From a virus (Duplodnaviria > Caudoviricetes), in IMG/VR virus record IMGVR_UViG_3300035135_001806, positions 1 through 42,861 of that record: 42,861 bases of DNA. One strand, given 5' to 3'. The translations under genes were made by a program, and so were the position numbers. Below are positions 1 through 41,202 of this stretch, in pieces. How positions within the stretch are numbered: position 1 is the stretch's first letter; each line of letters opens with the position of its first letter. The notes below the pieces were generated by a model that worked only from the letters and a program-made list of their open reading frames with translations, ran no database searches and was not told the DNA's origin.

Positions 1-205
1 GAGATCTACAGATGTTGATCAAATGCGTGATACATTTCACACTATAACAAATGGTGCATATAGCAATCTACTGTACGAACTATTTTCAAAAGAACGTGTT
101 GAAGCAGAACTTGAAAAGTTTTTAGAGTTTGACTTCTTCCCAAGAGTCGGGGGCGGTATTGGAATGACTAGAATGATTGCCGCACTAGACAAGTTAGAAG
201 GTTAA
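1..205 (+). CDS. C-terminal part (5'-truncated by window) of an AsnA-like / class II aminoacyl-tRNA synthetase-like protein
   Basis: Frame open from nt 2 (RSTDVDQMRDTF...). Ends with FFPRVGGGIGMTRMIAAL, resembling class II aaRS motif 3 and especially AsnA (IGGGIGQSRL). Confidence 0.7.
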   Translation, partial: RSTDVDQMRDTFHTITNGAYSNLLYELFSKERVEAELEKFLEFDFFPRVGGGIGMTRMIAALDKLEG

Positions 206-211
206 TTATAA

Positions 212-312
212 TCTGGGGTGGTGGAAATGGTAGACACGCATGATTGTTTCTCATGTGCCAAATGTACTGCAATATATTTAGCGTGAAGGTTCGAGTCCTT
301 CCCCCAGAGCCA
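212..312 (+). tRNA. Atypical tRNA with Asn anticodon (GTT) and long variable arm
   Basis: Acceptor TCTGGGG/CCCCAGA, discriminator G plus encoded CCA; Leu/Ser-type D arm GTGGAAATGGTAGACAC; anticodon stem CATGA/TCATG with loop TTGTTTC; 29-nt variable region; T arm GAAGG-TTCGAGT-CCTTC. Confidence 0.85.
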
Positions 313-5849: not shown

Positions 5850-6335
5850 ATGGCTTACTTTAGTACAAAAACATACGGACACAACATCGGACTTTCAGCG
5901 GTGTTCCGTCAACCAAACGCAGATCATTCACATTGTCATTTGCTACATGGTTATAGTTTGCAATTTAAATTTACATTTGGTTGTTCTAATTTAGATAATA
6001 AAAACTGGGCAGTTGACTTTGGTGGACTAAAACCACTGAAAGCATGGCTAGAAGATTCATTTGATCACAAACTATGTATCGACAAAGATGATCCTATGAA
6101 AGATGAACTGTTACTACTTGAAACAAAAGGCCTCGCAGAGATTAGACAGTTTGATGGAGTAGGTGCAGAGAAATTTGCAGAACATGCCTGGCGTTTTGCA
6201 GATAACCTAGTACGAAAAGCAACAGATAATCGCTGTTGGTGTGAATCAGCTGAATGTGCAGAGCATGGTGCAAATAGTGCTATCTATACGCCTTTTGAAG
6301 TACAGAAGATGTCTTTTGCAGATGCCAAAAATTGA
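5850..6335 (+). CDS. queD: 6-pyruvoyl-tetrahydropterin synthase / QueD-like T-fold enzyme
   Basis: HSHCHLLHGYS, VDFGGLK, FDH, AEKFAE motifs. Confidence 0.85.
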   Translation: MAYFSTKTYGHNIGLSAVFRQPNADHSHCHLLHGYSLQFKFTFGCSNLDNKNWAVDFGGLKPLKAWLEDSFDHKLCIDKDDPMKDELLLLETKGLAEIRQFDGVGAEKFAEHAWRFADNLVRKATDNRCWCESAECAEHGANSAIYTPFEVQKMSFADAKN

Positions 6336-7152: not shown

Positions 7153-8289
7153 ATGAGTATGGATTTGAAATTTACAACAGCAGGTGATTATTTGAAGTCA
7201 CAACAAAAGCGGATAGGTTTTGCATGTAAGTACATGCATCCTGATCAAACGCAAAAGAAGAAATTACTAGAAGAAATACAAAGGCCGCTAAATACTCGTA
7301 GCACAACAGTGGCGTGGCTAAACAGACAGACACGTGATGTTGCTGAAGAACGCTTGTGGGATATCATGACTCACAATATTGCGTCATACAAGAGGTTGAT
7401 TGAGTATGTGGGAAGCCTTCCTCCAGAGCTTCGTATGGTCCGATTGGGTAGCGATGTGCTTCCTGTTTATACCGAGCCTACTTGGAGTTATTATTGGCGG
7501 TTGCCTCATGTACGTGACTACTGTGAGAAACAATTCGCACCAGTCGGCGAAACGGCAAGAGCCCTCGATGTCCGATTATCGATGCACCCAGGCCAATTTA
7601 CTGTACTTGCAAGCGACAACCCCGAAATTGTCGAAAGATCAATCGAAGAATTTGAATATCACATAGATGTAGCGAGGTGGATGGGATATGGTAAAGAGTT
7701 TCAGGATTTCAAGTGCAATGTCCACATATCAGGCCGTAAAGGTCCAGCCGGTATCAAAGACGCACTTAAACGTCTCTCGCCAGAAGCAAGAAACTGTATT
7801 ACTATCGAAAACGACGAAAACAAATGGGGAATCGAAGCGAGTCTCGAACTTGCAGACGATCTCGCTTTGGTGCTAGACATACACCATCATTGGGTAAACT
7901 CAGGAGAATACATACAACCAAGTGATGATAGATTCCTTCGTATTGTAGACAGTTGGCGCGGAGTACGTCCTGTCATACACTACAGCGTTTCACGTGAGGA
8001 TTTACTTGTAGGACACCCTACAGATGTACAACCTGACATGGATATATTACTTGCAGGTGAATACAAAAAAGCAAAACTACGTGCTCATAGTGATTACATG
8101 TGGAATAATGCTGTTAATGATTGGGCATTAGGGTTTTGGCCATATGCAGATATAATGGTAGAAAGCAAAGCAAAAAATCTTGCAAGTATCGGCCTGCATA
8201 AATACTATACGGAGAACAATAATGAGTTATCTAAACAAAATGTACGGCAGAAAGCCTTCACAACCGGACCAGACCCAATCATCATCTAA
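7153..8289 (+). CDS. uvsE: UV damage endonuclease UvsE/UvdE (true start may be 7159)
   Basis: IGFACK, RLGSD, RLSMHPGQFTVLAS, IENDE, LDIHHHW, AHSDY, MVESKAK motifs. Confidence 0.93.
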   Translation: MSMDLKFTTAGDYLKSQQKRIGFACKYMHPDQTQKKKLLEEIQRPLNTRSTTVAWLNRQTRDVAEERLWDIMTHNIASYKRLIEYVGSLPPELRMVRLGSDVLPVYTEPTWSYYWRLPHVRDYCEKQFAPVGETARALDVRLSMHPGQFTVLASDNPEIVERSIEEFEYHIDVARWMGYGKEFQDFKCNVHISGRKGPAGIKDALKRLSPEARNCITIENDENKWGIEASLELADDLALVLDIHHHWVNSGEYIQPSDDRFLRIVDSWRGVRPVIHYSVSREDLLVGHPTDVQPDMDILLAGEYKKAKLRAHSDYMWNNAVNDWALGFWPYADIMVESKAKNLASIGLHKYYTENNNELSKQNVRQKAFTTGPDPIII

Positions 8290-24934: not shown

Positions 24935-25456
24935 ATGCTTATGAAAACAGACTCTTTAGGTATACCCAGATTTTCTAATCAGGATTTGATTGATATGATC
25001 TATTCTGGACATGCAGATAAATGTCATGTGGTTCTGTGTGATCCAAGTGATGACGTAGATAAATTTAACAGTGCAATGCAAGAGCAAGGTTTGACTCCAT
25101 TGCAAAAGTATATTCCATTAGATGTAGATCAAAAGACTTTTGACGGTGTATGTCAAAGTGAATGGTTTATGCCTGACGAATACAAGAACATGGACATTTC
25201 AGAATATTTACAAAGTAAATGTAAAACACAAGAAGAACTTACACGTTATTTTGAAGAATATGCAGAGTTTAACAAACGAGGTATGCTACCGCTATTACGC
25301 TATATGGTTTATCTTGTGGACTTTATGCGTGAAAACGATATTGTATGGGGTGTAGGTCGTGGGTCAAGTGTAGCAAGTTATGTGTTGTATTTGATCGGTG
25401 TACATCGTATAAATTCAATCCAATATGGCCTGGATTGGAGAGAGTTCTTAAGATAA
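24935..25456 (+). CDS. DNA polymerase III alpha subunit-like fragment
   Basis: YLVDFMRENDIVWGVGRGSSVASYVLYLIGVHRINSIQYGLDWREFL matches the DnaE GRGS region; TTGACA-17-TAATAT promoter at 24900-24928. Confidence 0.8.
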   Translation: MLMKTDSLGIPRFSNQDLIDMIYSGHADKCHVVLCDPSDDVDKFNSAMQEQGLTPLQKYIPLDVDQKTFDGVCQSEWFMPDEYKNMDISEYLQSKCKTQEELTRYFEEYAEFNKRGMLPLLRYMVYLVDFMRENDIVWGVGRGSSVASYVLYLIGVHRINSIQYGLDWREFLR

Positions 25457-26605: not shown

Positions 26606-27276
26606 TGAGTACAATTACAGAAGCACGTGAACAATATGATTTAGGTTTGCGTGAATTTATGCTAAACATGTATAATCACACCGCGGCAGGACTTGCTGTT
26701 AGTGGTATAATCGCATGGTTAGTATATTCAACAGGATTGCTTTTTGCAATGGCCAACTCTATTTGGTTGTTTGCATTTGCACCTTTAGGAATGATTATTT
26801 GGTATTCTTTTGCAGGACGAAATTGGTCATATGATAAATTAAGAACATTTTATTATGCATTCACAGCAGTAATGGGCGTAGGACTTGCTCCTATTTTTGC
26901 AGTGTACACTGGTTACAGTATTACCCAAGTATTCTTTATAACAGCCGCGACATTTGCTGGCGCAAGTTTATGGGGATATACTACGAAACGTGATCTTACC
27001 GGATTCGGTCATTTCTTGTTTATGGGATTAATTGGTATTATTATCGCAAGCATTGTTAATTTGTTTATGGCAAGTTCAGCTCTTATGTTTACAATTAGTA
27101 TTTTAGGTGTTTTTATCTTTACAGGATTAACAGCATGGGATACTCAAAATGCAAAAACTATATATCGTAATCATGGCGGTGATCCTAGATATGGTATCCA
27201 ATTTGCAATCAGCTTATATTTGAATTTTATCAATTTATTTCAAATGTTACTTGCTCTTTTGGGCAATCGTGAATAA
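26605..27276 (+). CDS. Bax inhibitor-1 / YccA family membrane protein
   Basis: About 7 TM helices; GLREFMLNMYN, GYTTKRDLT, TAWDTQ, LYLNFINLF. Confidence 0.9.
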   Translation: MSTITEAREQYDLGLREFMLNMYNHTAAGLAVSGIIAWLVYSTGLLFAMANSIWLFAFAPLGMIIWYSFAGRNWSYDKLRTFYYAFTAVMGVGLAPIFAVYTGYSITQVFFITAATFAGASLWGYTTKRDLTGFGHFLFMGLIGIIIASIVNLFMASSALMFTISILGVFIFTGLTAWDTQNAKTIYRNHGGDPRYGIQFAISLYLNFINLFQMLLALLGNRE

Positions 27277-37657: not shown

Positions 37658-38473
37658 ATGGATTACTATGAACGTCTAGGAGTGTCTCGAAATGCTTCCT
37701 CTTCAGATATTAAAAAAGCCTATAAAAAACTTGCTCTGAAACACCATCCAGACAAAGGTGGTGATCATGCAACATTTGCAGAAATCAATGAAGCATATAA
37801 TACATTAAAGGATCCAGAGAAAAAACAAGAATACGATAATCCTCAGACCCAGTTTCATTTTAACACAACGAACCCTTTTGAAGGAGGAATGGGTGGAAAT
37901 TTTGAAGATATATTTGCAAACTTTGGTTTCAATATGGGAAGGAGACAACAACGTAATCAAGATGTGCATATAACTTATCCTATAGATTTTAAAGAAGTTT
38001 TTACAGGTACAGCAGTAAATATACAATTTAATTTACCTAGTGGTAAAAAAGAATATCTAGATGCGGCAATACCTCCTGGAGTAGATCACGGGAGTCAGGT
38101 TAGATATGCTGGATTAGGTGACGATTCGATTCCTAATTTACCAAGAGGTAATTTAATATTACGTATTAAGGTTCGTTCAGATCCTGACTGGAAACGTGAT
38201 GGCATTAATATATATACAACAAAGACTATTAATATTTTTGATCTTATTTTAGGAATTTCTATGGAAATAAAGACGCCAAGTGGTAAAAATTTTAGCCTAC
38301 ATATACCGCAAGGAACAAAGCCTGGAACAACATTTAGCATAACAGGACACGGAGTACCTGATGTAAATACAAATAGAGCAGGGAATGTATATGTAAAACT
38401 TAATGCACATATACCTTCACTAACACAAGCTCAACTAATGAAAATAAAAGGAATAAAAGATGGAACTTATTAA
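37658..38473 (+). CDS. DnaJ-family co-chaperone without Zn finger (CbpA-like)
   Basis: J domain DYYERLGV...HHPDK, G/F region, DnaJ C-terminal domain. Confidence 0.9.
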   Translation: MDYYERLGVSRNASSSDIKKAYKKLALKHHPDKGGDHATFAEINEAYNTLKDPEKKQEYDNPQTQFHFNTTNPFEGGMGGNFEDIFANFGFNMGRRQQRNQDVHITYPIDFKEVFTGTAVNIQFNLPSGKKEYLDAAIPPGVDHGSQVRYAGLGDDSIPNLPRGNLILRIKVRSDPDWKRDGINIYTTKTINIFDLILGISMEIKTPSGKNFSLHIPQGTKPGTTFSITGHGVPDVNTNRAGNVYVKLNAHIPSLTQAQLMKIKGIKDGTY

Positions 38474-38969
38474 AAGCCCAGACCCATGGTTACAAACAAA
38501 AGTAAAACCATTTTTCTTTTCTGAAATGGATGCAAAATTAATTTCAGGTGAAATGTGCAAAATAATGATGGCAAAAAATGGACTAGGCTTGAGTGCCAAT
38601 CAAGTTGGACTAGATGCACAGATTTTTGTAATGAGACCAATAGAACACAAAGAAATCACTAAACCATTTGCTGTTATCAATCCAGAAATATTAGAAGTAA
38701 GTGAAGAAACAGTTCTTGCAAAAGAAGGGTGTTTAAGTCATATAGGTTTGGTATTAAATATAAGAAGACCAAGGAGTTTGGTAGCCAAATTTCTTGACAT
38801 AGACGAGAAAGAATGTATACTAGAGTTTACAGGTATAGATGCAAGATGTTTTGCTCACGAATTTGATCATCTGCAAGGTATTGAATTTATAGACAGAGTA
38901 TCTAGACTGAAATTAGATATGGCAAAAAAGAAGCAAAAAAAGTTAATGCAGGAGTTAGTTAATGGTTGA
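38460..38969 (+). CDS. def: Peptide deformylase
   Basis: GLGLSANQVG, EGCLS, HEFDHLQG. Confidence 0.95.
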   Translation: MELIKSPDPWLQTKVKPFFFSEMDAKLISGEMCKIMMAKNGLGLSANQVGLDAQIFVMRPIEHKEITKPFAVINPEILEVSEETVLAKEGCLSHIGLVLNIRRPRSLVAKFLDIDEKECILEFTGIDARCFAHEFDHLQGIEFIDRVSRLKLDMAKKKQKKLMQELVNG

Positions 38970-41202
38970 GCCGTCAAAGGACCTTCAATTAGTTTTTGAT
39001 AAAAGTATCAAGGACGCCAAAAAATTAGGACATGAATTTGTAACATTAGAACACTTATTGTTTGCAATGATGTGTAGTGATAGTTTTTACAATCTATGTA
39101 AAGGCTTTGGTGCAGATGTTGATTTCTTAAAAAGTAATCTTGAACATCATCTCAAAAATGAAATGAATGAAATTAAAATAGAAGATCCTAAATATAAACC
39201 TAAAAAAACACAGACTGTAGAACGCTGTCTTAACAGAGCATTTACACAAGTGTTATTTGCAGGGCGTCCAAACATTGAACTAAGTGATGTTGGATTAAGC
39301 ATACTTTCTGAAAAGAAAACCCATGCTAATTACTTTATGGAAAAAGCAGGCATCGAAAAAGAAAAATTTGCAGAATATTTGCAAGCGGAATTTGAAACTG
39401 GATTTGAAGATGAAGAAATTAGTGGTGCGGCGGCTAGAGCATTAAGAGCTTTTACAACTAATCTTAATGATCAGGTAAAAAATGAAAAAATAGATCCTGT
39501 TATTGGTAGACAAGAAGAACTAGATAGTATTGCACTTGCACTAGGTAGACGTAGCAAAAACAATGTGCTGTTAGTAGGCGATCCTGGTGTAGGTAAAACT
39601 GCTATTGCAGAAGGTATGGCTTTTAATATTGTTCAAGGCAACGTTCCAGAATTTTTAAAAGAATTCAAAGTCTATAATTTAGATATTGGTGCAATGTTGG
39701 CTGGTTCAAAATACAGAGGTGATTTTGAAGAACGTTTTAAACTTGTTCTAGCAGGATTGAAAAAACAAGGCAAAACAATTATGTTTGTTGATGAGGCACA
39801 TATGATGAACGGTGCAGGAGCAGGTGGGGGGCAAAGCTCTAACGATCTAGCAAACATGCTTAAACCTGCACTTACAAAAGGTGACTTAAAAGTTGTTGCT
39901 TCAACCACTTGGGAAGAATACAGAAAATATTTTGAAAAAGACCGTGCCTTAATGCGGCGTTTCCAACGTGTAACAGTTGATGAGCCTTCTCCAGAAGTTA
40001 CTAACGACATACTCAACGGCATCAAAAAATACTACGAAGATTATCATGCTACAGAAATTACACAAGAAGCAATTGATGAAGCAATTAAATTAAGTGTAAA
40101 ATATCAAGCAGATAAAAAACTTCCTGACAAAGCAATTGATTTGATTGATCAAGCATGTTCAAGATTTAATTTGCTTCCTAAGGTAGAAAAGAAAATTGTG
40201 ACAGCAGAAAATATCCAATTTGAATTAGCAAAAGCAGTAAACTTACCAACAGAACAAGTTGCTGAAAAAGAAACTGAAAATCTTGCTAATCTAGAACACA
40301 ATATCAAAGGCCAAGTCTACGGACAAGATAAAGCAGTTGAAGATGTGGTAGACAAAATCCTTGTAAGTCAAGCAGGACTGAAAGCAAGTGATAAACCTAT
40401 TGGTGCATTTGTGTTTATGGGTCCAACAGGCACAGGTAAAACAGAGACTGCAAAAGCTCTTGCAAGTAATTTAGGTGTCAAACTTGTGCGTTTTGATATG
40501 AGTGAATATCAAGAACGCCATAGTGTAAGTAAACTTTTAGGTTCGCCTCCAGGTTATGTAGGACATGAAGAAAAAGGTGGCTTACTAATTGAACGTTTGC
40601 AAGAAAATCCTAATTGTGTGCTACTTCTTGATGAAATAGAAAAAGCACACCCAGACGTATCACAAGTATTGTTACAAATTATGGATAATGGTAAGGTTAC
40701 AGGATCAAACGGTAAAGAAGCTGATGCACGTAATTGTATCCTTATCCTAACAACCAACTTAGGTGCTGCCGAAGCTGAGAAAAACAACATTGGCTTTATG
40801 GAAGACTTTGAAAAAGAATATGAAGACGGAGCATTGAAGAAATACTTTGCTCCAGAATTTAGAAACAGATTAGACGGCGTTGTAACATTTGCAAAACTAA
40901 GCAAAGAAACTATGATGAAAATTGTAGGCAAGTTCTTGGTTGAATTAAAAGATATGGTAAAGGATAAAAATGTTAAAATCACTGTTAGTGATGAAACATT
41001 AGACTACCTTGTTGAAAAAGGATTTGATCCTAAGATGGGTGCAAGACCTTTACAACGTGTTATTGATAGAGAAATCAAACGTAAATTAGCTAGAGAACTA
41101 TTGTTTGGTGATCTTAAAGACGGCGGCAACCTAAATGTTAATATTGCCAAAGGCGAAATAGTTTTAGAGACCAAAGGAACAAAAGTTGTTGAAAAGGTTT
41201 GA
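38962..41202 (+). CDS. clpA: ClpA-like ATP-dependent Clp protease ATPase subunit
   Basis: Clp N-domain, two AAA+ modules (GDPGVGKT, GPTGTGKT), KYRG and GYVG pore loops, IGF loop, no ClpB middle domain. Confidence 0.9.
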   Translation: MVEPSKDLQLVFDKSIKDAKKLGHEFVTLEHLLFAMMCSDSFYNLCKGFGADVDFLKSNLEHHLKNEMNEIKIEDPKYKPKKTQTVERCLNRAFTQVLFAGRPNIELSDVGLSILSEKKTHANYFMEKAGIEKEKFAEYLQAEFETGFEDEEISGAAARALRAFTTNLNDQVKNEKIDPVIGRQEELDSIALALGRRSKNNVLLVGDPGVGKTAIAEGMAFNIVQGNVPEFLKEFKVYNLDIGAMLAGSKYRGDFEERFKLVLAGLKKQGKTIMFVDEAHMMNGAGAGGGQSSNDLANMLKPALTKGDLKVVASTTWEEYRKYFEKDRALMRRFQRVTVDEPSPEVTNDILNGIKKYYEDYHATEITQEAIDEAIKLSVKYQADKKLPDKAIDLIDQACSRFNLLPKVEKKIVTAENIQFELAKAVNLPTEQVAEKETENLANLEHNIKGQVYGQDKAVEDVVDKILVSQAGLKASDKPIGAFVFMGPTGTGKTETAKALASNLGVKLVRFDMSEYQERHSVSKLLGSPPGYVGHEEKGGLLIERLQENPNCVLLLDEIEKAHPDVSQVLLQIMDNGKVTGSNGKEADARNCILILTTNLGAAEAEKNNIGFMEDFEKEYEDGALKKYFAPEFRNRLDGVVTFAKLSKETMMKIVGKFLVELKDMVKDKNVKITVSDETLDYLVEKGFDPKMGARPLQRVIDREIKRKLARELLFGDLKDGGNLNVNIAKGEIVLETKGTKVVEKV

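Follow-up and report, generated by a model that had tools for sequence, protein, structure and literature searches.

The locus analysed here raises the question of what a gene related to aminoacyl-tRNA synthetases does in a tailed phage, placed directly upstream of an odd tRNA with an asparagine anticodon (Table 1). Both lie at the start of the window, i.e. the whole stretch of DNA analysed (42,861 nucleotides), a 42.9-kb tailed-phage contig equal to its own whole record, with ORFs for a DNA ligase, tail and baseplate-like proteins, ThyX, PhoH and ClpA. From the window start, frame 2 has no stop before a TAA ending at 205; it encodes the motif GGGIGMTR at nt 149–172. The preliminary description had reported an ORF ending at 205 with this motif and a tRNA from 212, and both were confirmed on the sequence. 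The enzyme fragment is 98% identical over 65 aa to that of locus L002, while locus L001 has the same sequence as the window and is no independent instance. A contig from an RNA library spans 65–233 at a depth of 3.4; a piece of the ligase gene is equally deep, hence this constitutes no evidence of expression.

Table 1 Features of the enzyme–tRNA locus at the start of the window.
Feature	Positions	Strand	Remarks
Enzyme 3' end, 67 aa including motif 3	2–205	+	PHROG 29758; 5' part outside the window; predicted full length about 273–296 aa (266–297 aa in relatives)
Spacer, stop codon to tRNA, 6 nt	206–211	+	
tRNA(GUU) with tRNA-Leu-type body	212–312	+	U1-A72, A15:U48, extra D-loop base, pyrimidine 37, G73, encoded CCA
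Anticodon GUU (Asn)	246–248	+	Invariant, 52/52 distinct relatives
Variable region, 29 nt	256–284	+	Length 6–37 nt among relatives; no conserved identity element

Host-like genes elsewhere in the window encode a QueD/PTPS protein (5850–6335), the UV endonuclease UvdE (7153–8289), a Bax-inhibitor/YccA membrane protein (26659–27276) and a peptide deformylase with a ClpA-type ATPase (38460–41202), and a stand-alone 173-aa ORF (24935–25456) matches part of the NTPase domain of bacterial DNA polymerase III alpha. A queuosine role for the synthetase-like enzyme together with this QueD, by analogy to GluQ-RS, was considered and receives no support from the neighbourhood clusters. Downstream of the odd tRNA, the region 388–505 precedes tRNA-Trp (506–579) and tRNA-Cys (581–654) and contains a leader ORF of 15 codons in which a Cys and a Trp codon are neighbours. 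A G-run after the leader can pair with the 5' arm of an intrinsic terminator, with predicted energies of -15.4 kcal/mol for the antiterminator and -23.6 kcal/mol for the terminator. A leader of 15–27 codons with one Trp codon, a G-run and a terminator precede tRNA-Trp in 6 of 9 distinct loci (L001, which is the window, L038, L042, L050, L088 and L118). As judged from its sequence, this region looks like a trp-type ribosome attenuator, which would turn on the phage tRNA-Trp under a shortage of charged tRNA-Trp.

A scan of viral contigs returned 414 relatives of the enzyme among 433 candidates, from which 80 loci were kept; the ORF is full length (266–297 aa) in 69 of these 80 viral relatives. 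Three tested relatives fall in the same PHROG (29758), and the three full-length relatives submitted to domain search all contain PF00152 alone, with the OB-fold anticodon-binding domain absent; nor is an OB domain listed in any of 14 longer homologues. The assignment to a class II synthetase-like gene thus stands, and the check for an anticodon-binding domain on the full gene, which the preliminary description had called for, shows in full-length relatives that there is none. The three tested relatives score far under every NCBIfam cut-off, with 35–41 bits for asnS (TIGR00457; cut-off 342.6), 20–24 bits for the AsnA-type family PRK06462 (389) and about 16–20 bits for EpmA (TIGR00462; 286.9). 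AsnRS is the best match to a profile built from 85 relatives (E 1.7e-15), followed by AspRS, archaeal AS-A (2.8e-6) and EpmA, while E. coli AsnA is not among the 34 matches of the profile. Similarly, hhalign gives a probability of 96% against E. coli AsnRS and 3.9% against E. coli AsnA. The AlphaFold model (pLDDT 96) has a Foldseek TM of 0.74–0.80 to AsnRS and AspRS structures.

The class II catalytic fold, motifs 1–3 and the Asn pocket are all present, at an identity to AsnRS of ~19%. With the AsnRS catalytic domain of class IIb (PDB 2xti/2xgt, 1x54, 9sh8, 8h53; TIGR00457), the best profile match, the family has in common the fold, the QxxLE motif and residues of motifs 2 and 3. Positions that we take, from AsnRS, to form the Asn pocket and ATP site are conserved among the 85 relatives (Q64 in 79, E68 in 76, R88 in 76, F102 in 76, E106 in 83, R209 in 78 and R265 in 79). 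In contrast to AsnRS, the OB-fold is missing and a near-invariant Arg replaces the motif 3 His (R256, 83 of 85); K193 (79), C41 (79) and N181 are further marks of the family. In a quick tree of 85 rows with SH-aLRT support, from which archaeal AS-A was absent and in which AsnA forms a very long branch, the family forms a single group on a long branch, separate from AsnRS, AspRS, LysRS, EpmA and AsnA, and EpmA groups with LysRS. Hence, the enzyme is an AsnRS-derived, catalytic-domain-only protein of class IIb, and by membership it is neither AsnA nor an AsnRS. The AsnA affinity proposed in the preliminary description did not survive these comparisons: the hhalign and PRK06462 values speak against it, and the phylogeny it had suggested, against AsnA, AspRS, AsnRS and EpmA, leaves the family separate from all four.

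The family is very large, with at least 8000 clusters at 90% identity and 677 representatives at 50% identity; a search of the ESM Atlas gives its own clusters only. Members are found in the cyanophages P-SSM2, P-SSM5 and P-SSM7, two megaphages and a pithovirus, while a search for a plasmid homologue found none. One homologue, P0283, has a LAGLIDADG domain within the catalytic domain, probably an intein.

The tRNA at 212–312 is matched by the Rfam tRNA model with 45.9 bits (E 1.7e-8). ARAGORN at default settings did not detect it, and its single-sequence MFE fold is not a cloverleaf (z -1.5, not significant). It has a Leu-type (class II) D arm, and its anticodon GTT is followed by T, not a purine. 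In the detection of relatives around the 80 viral loci neither the anticodon, the first pair nor the discriminator was imposed, and still GUU, U1-A72 and G73 each occur in 52/52 distinct tRNAs. A15:U48 is likewise present in 52/52 and the extra D-loop base in all; A15:U48 and the other body features are Leu-type. Position 37 is a pyrimidine in 44/52, the other 8 having a normal A37-A38 loop, and position 33 is not U in 5/52; both a pyrimidine 37 and a non-U33 suit decoding poorly. The variable region has at least 12 nt in 51/52, the exception being L024:4203–4280, where it has 6 nt only, yet the Leu-type D arm, GUU, U1-A72 and G73 are retained. For the 36 of the 52 that were aligned, 99.3% of stem cells are paired, with double-sided changes at 17 of 23 pairs. 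In P-SSM2, the RefSeq record NC_006883.2 annotates tRNA-Asn ~2 kb downstream of its true place, within a CDS that contains no tRNA; the real odd tRNA (L082:3814–3902) lies 9 nt after the enzyme gene.

The tRNA belongs to neither of the two canonical types. It has the GUU, G73 and U1-A72 of bacterial tRNA-Asn, but not the short variable loop or the purine 37, and it carries a base 20a; the body is that of tRNA-Leu, but all relatives have G73 and GUU and so fall outside that type. Excerpts of PMC9976931 give the anticodon and G73 as the Asn identity set and list G73 as an antideterminant against LeuRS, while in those of PMC1635274 U1-A72 is a GatCAB determinant and base 20a in tRNA-Asp hinders GatCAB. 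The preliminary description had tied the gene to this tRNA type and proposed that its long arm, rather than the anticodon, is recognised. The tie is borne out. The odd tRNA is found at 73/80 viral loci, as well as in P-SSM7, P-SSM2, the window and, by annotation, P-SSM5, with a spacer of 4–10 nt in 50 of the 52 distinct tRNAs. A reverse scan by tRNA pattern, partly overlapping with the protein-derived set, gave at least 120 loci, of which 118 were parsed; among those listed, 110 have the enzyme gene upstream, 6 are at contig ends and 2 have a 300-nt flank only.

The converse does not hold, since the enzyme occurs with no odd tRNA nearby at 7/80 viral loci and at 74/80 genome loci from GTDB (80 kept from 404 relatives). 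Several of the 6 GTDB loci that do have the tRNA resemble phage contigs in bins. The closest 'cellular' matches (L205–L209, L216 and L233, in GTDB bins) are 64–84% identical to the phage enzyme and mostly have the odd tRNA; these are probably phage contigs inside bins. In addition, the enzyme gene of a complete 342-kb phage is followed by one like pyrD, and nothing in this phage matches the tRNA pattern. In the quick tree, the enzymes linked to the tRNA fall into one main clade (SH-aLRT 99) within the tRNA-free family, and phage enzymes lacking the tRNA take three positions inside that clade. The tRNA therefore depends on the gene, and the gene does not depend on the tRNA, which is an accessory that a phage clade acquired and that has since disappeared at least three times. 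The enzymes of L057 (no tRNA) and L043 (tRNA) are 97.8% identical, with conservative, surface-type changes, and those of L017/L036 (13-nt arm) and L034/L046 (29-nt arm) are 99.3% identical. As near-identical enzymes are paired with arms of either 13 or 29 nt, it is not the arm that the enzyme reads; together with the 6-nt example and the invariant GUU beside an enzyme that has no domain to read an anticodon, this makes a private pair that reads the long arm unlikely. Nor does a self-contained module for Asn decoding fit the tRNA-free loci, or a genomic context that points to pyrimidine synthesis.

This context is seen in several phyla, with PyrD, PyrE, PyrE-F and PRPP synthetase as neighbours. 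The enzyme gene adjoins pyrD and pyrE-F in Aureispira, pyrD and pyrF in an alphaproteobacterium, and pyrD and PRPP synthetase in a Rickettsiaceae bin, while a pyrD-like gene adjoins it at four phage loci (L017, L036, L054 and L056). Furthermore, 9 of the 14 longer homologues contain a PyrD domain; one of these clusters, P0271, has 9 members, and another counted here, P0282, is probably a frameshifted operon. In P0138 the enzyme is fused to PyrF. A PyrE-like gene is present at 11/84 viral loci. In L036:2476–4700 and L017:2077–4700, a pyrD-like gene clusters with a canonical tRNA-Trp, with the enzyme and its odd tRNA, and with a PyrE-like phosphoribosyltransferase of 130 aa. The reading of this 130-aa neighbour as PyrE is weak, at E 0.04 to an OPRT and with no Pfam or NCBIfam match. 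No match to the phage PyrD-like gene was found in P-SSM2, P-SSM5 or P-SSM7, which have the pair, and among the ORFs read in the 42 kb downstream in the window no PyrD-like gene was found; both results count against the proposed route. The commonest neighbours overall are Dus and DnaX (18 loci each), reflecting Patescibacteria synteny; at 18/80 genome loci (L213, L217–L220, L222 and others) the enzyme gene is flanked by dnaX and the gene for dihydrouridine synthase, an arrangement that complete genomes lacking pyrD/pyrF show as well.

The presence of pyrimidine enzymes was determined in 50 of the 80 GTDB genomes, phage-like and short contigs being left out. PyrB is over cut-off in 3 of these 50 enzyme-positive genomes, which thus have both and count against a replacement; a fourth PyrB-like match, in G035, is ornithine carbamoyltransferase (ArgF). 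PyrD is over cut-off in 29/50 (strong in 20) and PyrF in 27/50; both occur together in 15/50, 13 of which are without PyrB. The pattern is clearest in 11 large genomes (10 Bacteroidota and 1 alphaproteobacterium), where PyrD is found in 11/11 and PyrB and true PyrC in 0/11, although the genomes without PyrB and PyrC are MAGs from only two or three lineages and these counts are not independent. PyrC-like matches in enzyme-positive genomes are allantoinase or dihydropyrimidinase, CarB is found in 2/10 large genomes tested, and 5/5 PyrB-positive relatives taken as controls have PyrC. Within families, in counts that include the centre genome by construction and whose kin are not independent, PyrB is present in 0/3 enzyme-positive Saprospiraceae versus 140/148 others (family of G027), and in 0/3 enzyme-positive Weeksellaceae versus 76/98 others (family of G046). 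The pattern expected of a replacement, with the enzyme present where PyrB and PyrC are absent and PyrD is kept, is thus seen in 11/11 large genomes, with exceptions among small ones. In the class of G006, PyrF is present in 6/9 enzyme-positive versus 69/242 negative genomes, a modest link (p 0.02). Strong PyrD and PyrF are both absent from 18/50 genomes, including two complete Patescibacteria chromosomes (G006 and G020), which keep the gene without pyrD/pyrF and count against a pyrimidine role.

On balance we consider it likely that the enzyme serves the entry into pyrimidine synthesis. To our knowledge, the opening steps of this pathway (CarAB, PyrB and PyrC) are treated as universal; the enzyme is predicted to replace all three. 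The retention of PyrD with the loss of PyrC (and PyrB) points to dihydroorotate as the product, while an ATP-dependent replacement of PyrC only was rejected, as PyrB and mostly CarB are missing as well. Like CarAB, PyrB and PyrC together, the enzyme would deliver dihydroorotate to PyrD, PyrE and PyrF, and in the families tested the two are mutually exclusive; in contrast to them, it would be a single, unrelated ATP-dependent enzyme with no need for carbamoyl phosphate. The formula balances for an inferred substrate Asn, as Asn plus CO2 minus water equals dihydroorotate, in which the alpha-amine would become N1 and the side-chain amide N3. Whether this one-enzyme route from Asn, CO2/bicarbonate and ATP to dihydroorotate operates, with a host-charged tRNA supplying the Asn, we consider an even call.

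Two chemistries could be envisaged. In one, the AsnRS-type site would form Asn-AMP, which CO2 would convert to the N-carboxyanhydride; the side-chain amide would then attack this, closing the six-membered ring. In the other, N-carboxy-Asn would be adenylated and then cyclise, for which TsaC, which adenylates N-carboxy-threonine, is a precedent. The extra Arg and Lys of the family are predicted to be able to hold the carbamate. For the former route, CO2 is described in the excerpt of PMC4262824 as turning aminoacyl adenylates into N-carboxyanhydrides at physiological levels.

The contribution proposed for the tRNA has less support than that of the enzyme. On its Leu body the tRNA carries GUU, G73 and U1-A72, the three elements that mark a tRNA for Asn in the host, so that the host's non-discriminating AspRS and GatCAB, or its AsnRS, would build Asn on it, while pyrimidine 37 and the bulky arm would bar it from decoding, thereby making it a private Asn source. 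Such a host-charged, translation-poor tRNA is the simplest reading and also the weakest step. Taken together, that the ring is built from Asn and CO2 without carbamoyl phosphate and that a phage-rebuilt Leu tRNA serves as a private Asn-making scaffold via host AspRS/GatCAB, feeding nucleotides and not the ribosome, is put forward tentatively, with the odds somewhat against it. The archaeal asparagine synthetase shares the Asn-type pocket yet uses Asp, hence the substrate is not fixed by sequence. Prochlorococcus MIT 9312, from the host genus of P-SSM2, P-SSM5 and P-SSM7, has GatCAB and no AsnRS, which favours the proposed charging; it also has one asnB homologue (PMC4206432, in excerpt), so that free Asn may exist, which counts against the tRNA as Asn supply. 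By analogy to tRNA-Asp, the extra D-loop base 20a may also count against GatCAB acting on the odd tRNA (PMC1635274, in excerpt). The normal A37-A38 loop of 8/52 tRNAs is a further point against the proposal.

All the pyrimidine evidence would apply equally if the enzyme opened pyrimidine synthesis and the tRNA were instead a covalent carrier acylated by the phage enzyme, or an activator, sensor or nuclease decoy. That the tRNA is never clearly found without the gene fits these roles, as does the case that base 20a makes against GatCAB (PMC1635274, in excerpt). However, an invariant GUU calls for a reader with an anticodon domain, absent from the phage enzyme, and enzymes with and without the tRNA can be almost identical; we regard these roles as rather unlikely. 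Still less weight is given to the model of the preliminary description, in which a private phage synthetase–tRNA pair charges Asn for translation, bypassing GatCAB in hosts without AsnRS. The near-obligate linkage, the AsnRS fold with intact ATP and Asn sites, the presence of the pair in the isolates P-SSM2, P-SSM5 and P-SSM7, and a Prochlorococcus host without AsnRS (PMC4206432, in excerpt) all favour it. It is nevertheless doubtful, since arm length varies under near-identical enzymes, the bases at 37 and 33 suit decoding poorly by the general rules for anticodon loops, tRNA-free relatives exist in cells and in the 342-kb phage with enzyme and pyrD, the tRNA-linked clade is nested inside the tRNA-free family, and the PyrD and PyrF fusions are left unexplained. 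If true, it would represent a natural minimal synthetase–tRNA pair.

It is improbable that the enzyme works as archaeal AS-A does, making Asn from Asp, NH3 and ATP independently of any tRNA, in which case the odd tRNA would be a downstream user or passenger. Archaeal AS-A (PDB 3p8t, 1nnh) and bacterial AsnA are likewise stand-alone catalytic domains derived from AsnRS/AspRS and employed in metabolism; AS-A is an AsnRS derivative without an anticodon domain and is matched by the family profile, and E. coli AsnA has a Cys-Glu pair where the family has a conserved ACE. This reading would also suit the complete genomes that retain the gene without pyrD/pyrF, and the 27 of 50 enzyme-positive genomes that have neither AsnRS nor AsnB (AsnRS over cut-off in 12, GatB in 40, AsnB-type in 15; AsnA in 0/5 tested). 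On the other hand, the family matches these enzymes more weakly than AsnRS, both by AsnA-type bit score and against E. coli AsnA, its context is one of pyrimidine genes and a dedicated tRNA, and the loss of PyrB and PyrC is left unexplained. Moreover, free Asn is useless for translation without AsnRS, which is over cut-off in so few of these genomes, and excerpts of PMC4206432 report AsnA only together with AsnRS.

The preferred reading, entry into pyrimidine synthesis, would place the enzyme beside HisZ, YadB/GluQ-RS and EpmA, synthetase paralogues that have lost the anticodon domain and have a non-translational role. We know of none of these in nucleotide synthesis or travelling with its own tRNA gene. 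Mixed-identity tRNAs set aside for special use are represented by the staphylococcal non-proteinogenic tRNA-Gly, the Streptomyces ProRSx/tRNA-ProA and the nematode nev-tRNA; unlike these, the odd tRNA combines a Leu-type body with Asn identity, in phages, beside an enzyme without an anticodon domain. HisZ and YadB are named as paralogue precedents in the excerpt of PMC7373986, and in that of PMC3037559 a table gives 'tRNA ligase' as the sole label for the genes of P-SSM2 and P-SSM7. A literature search, with most subscription papers outside its coverage, did not show the pair, or any role of an AsnRS-like enzyme in pyrimidine synthesis, to have been described. The gene–tRNA pair is real, conserved and not described in the literature searched.

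If the pyrimidine role is true, gaps in the pathway of Bacteroidota, Patescibacteria, alphaproteobacteria and large viruses would be accounted for by a replacement consisting of one enzyme, and a very large family now labelled 'tRNA ligase' would need a new annotation. The pair is present in phages that are in culture (P-SSM2, P-SSM5 and P-SSM7), making the proposal directly testable. A tRNA dedicated to nucleotide synthesis would, furthermore, represent both a new use of tRNA and a new auxiliary metabolic function of phages.
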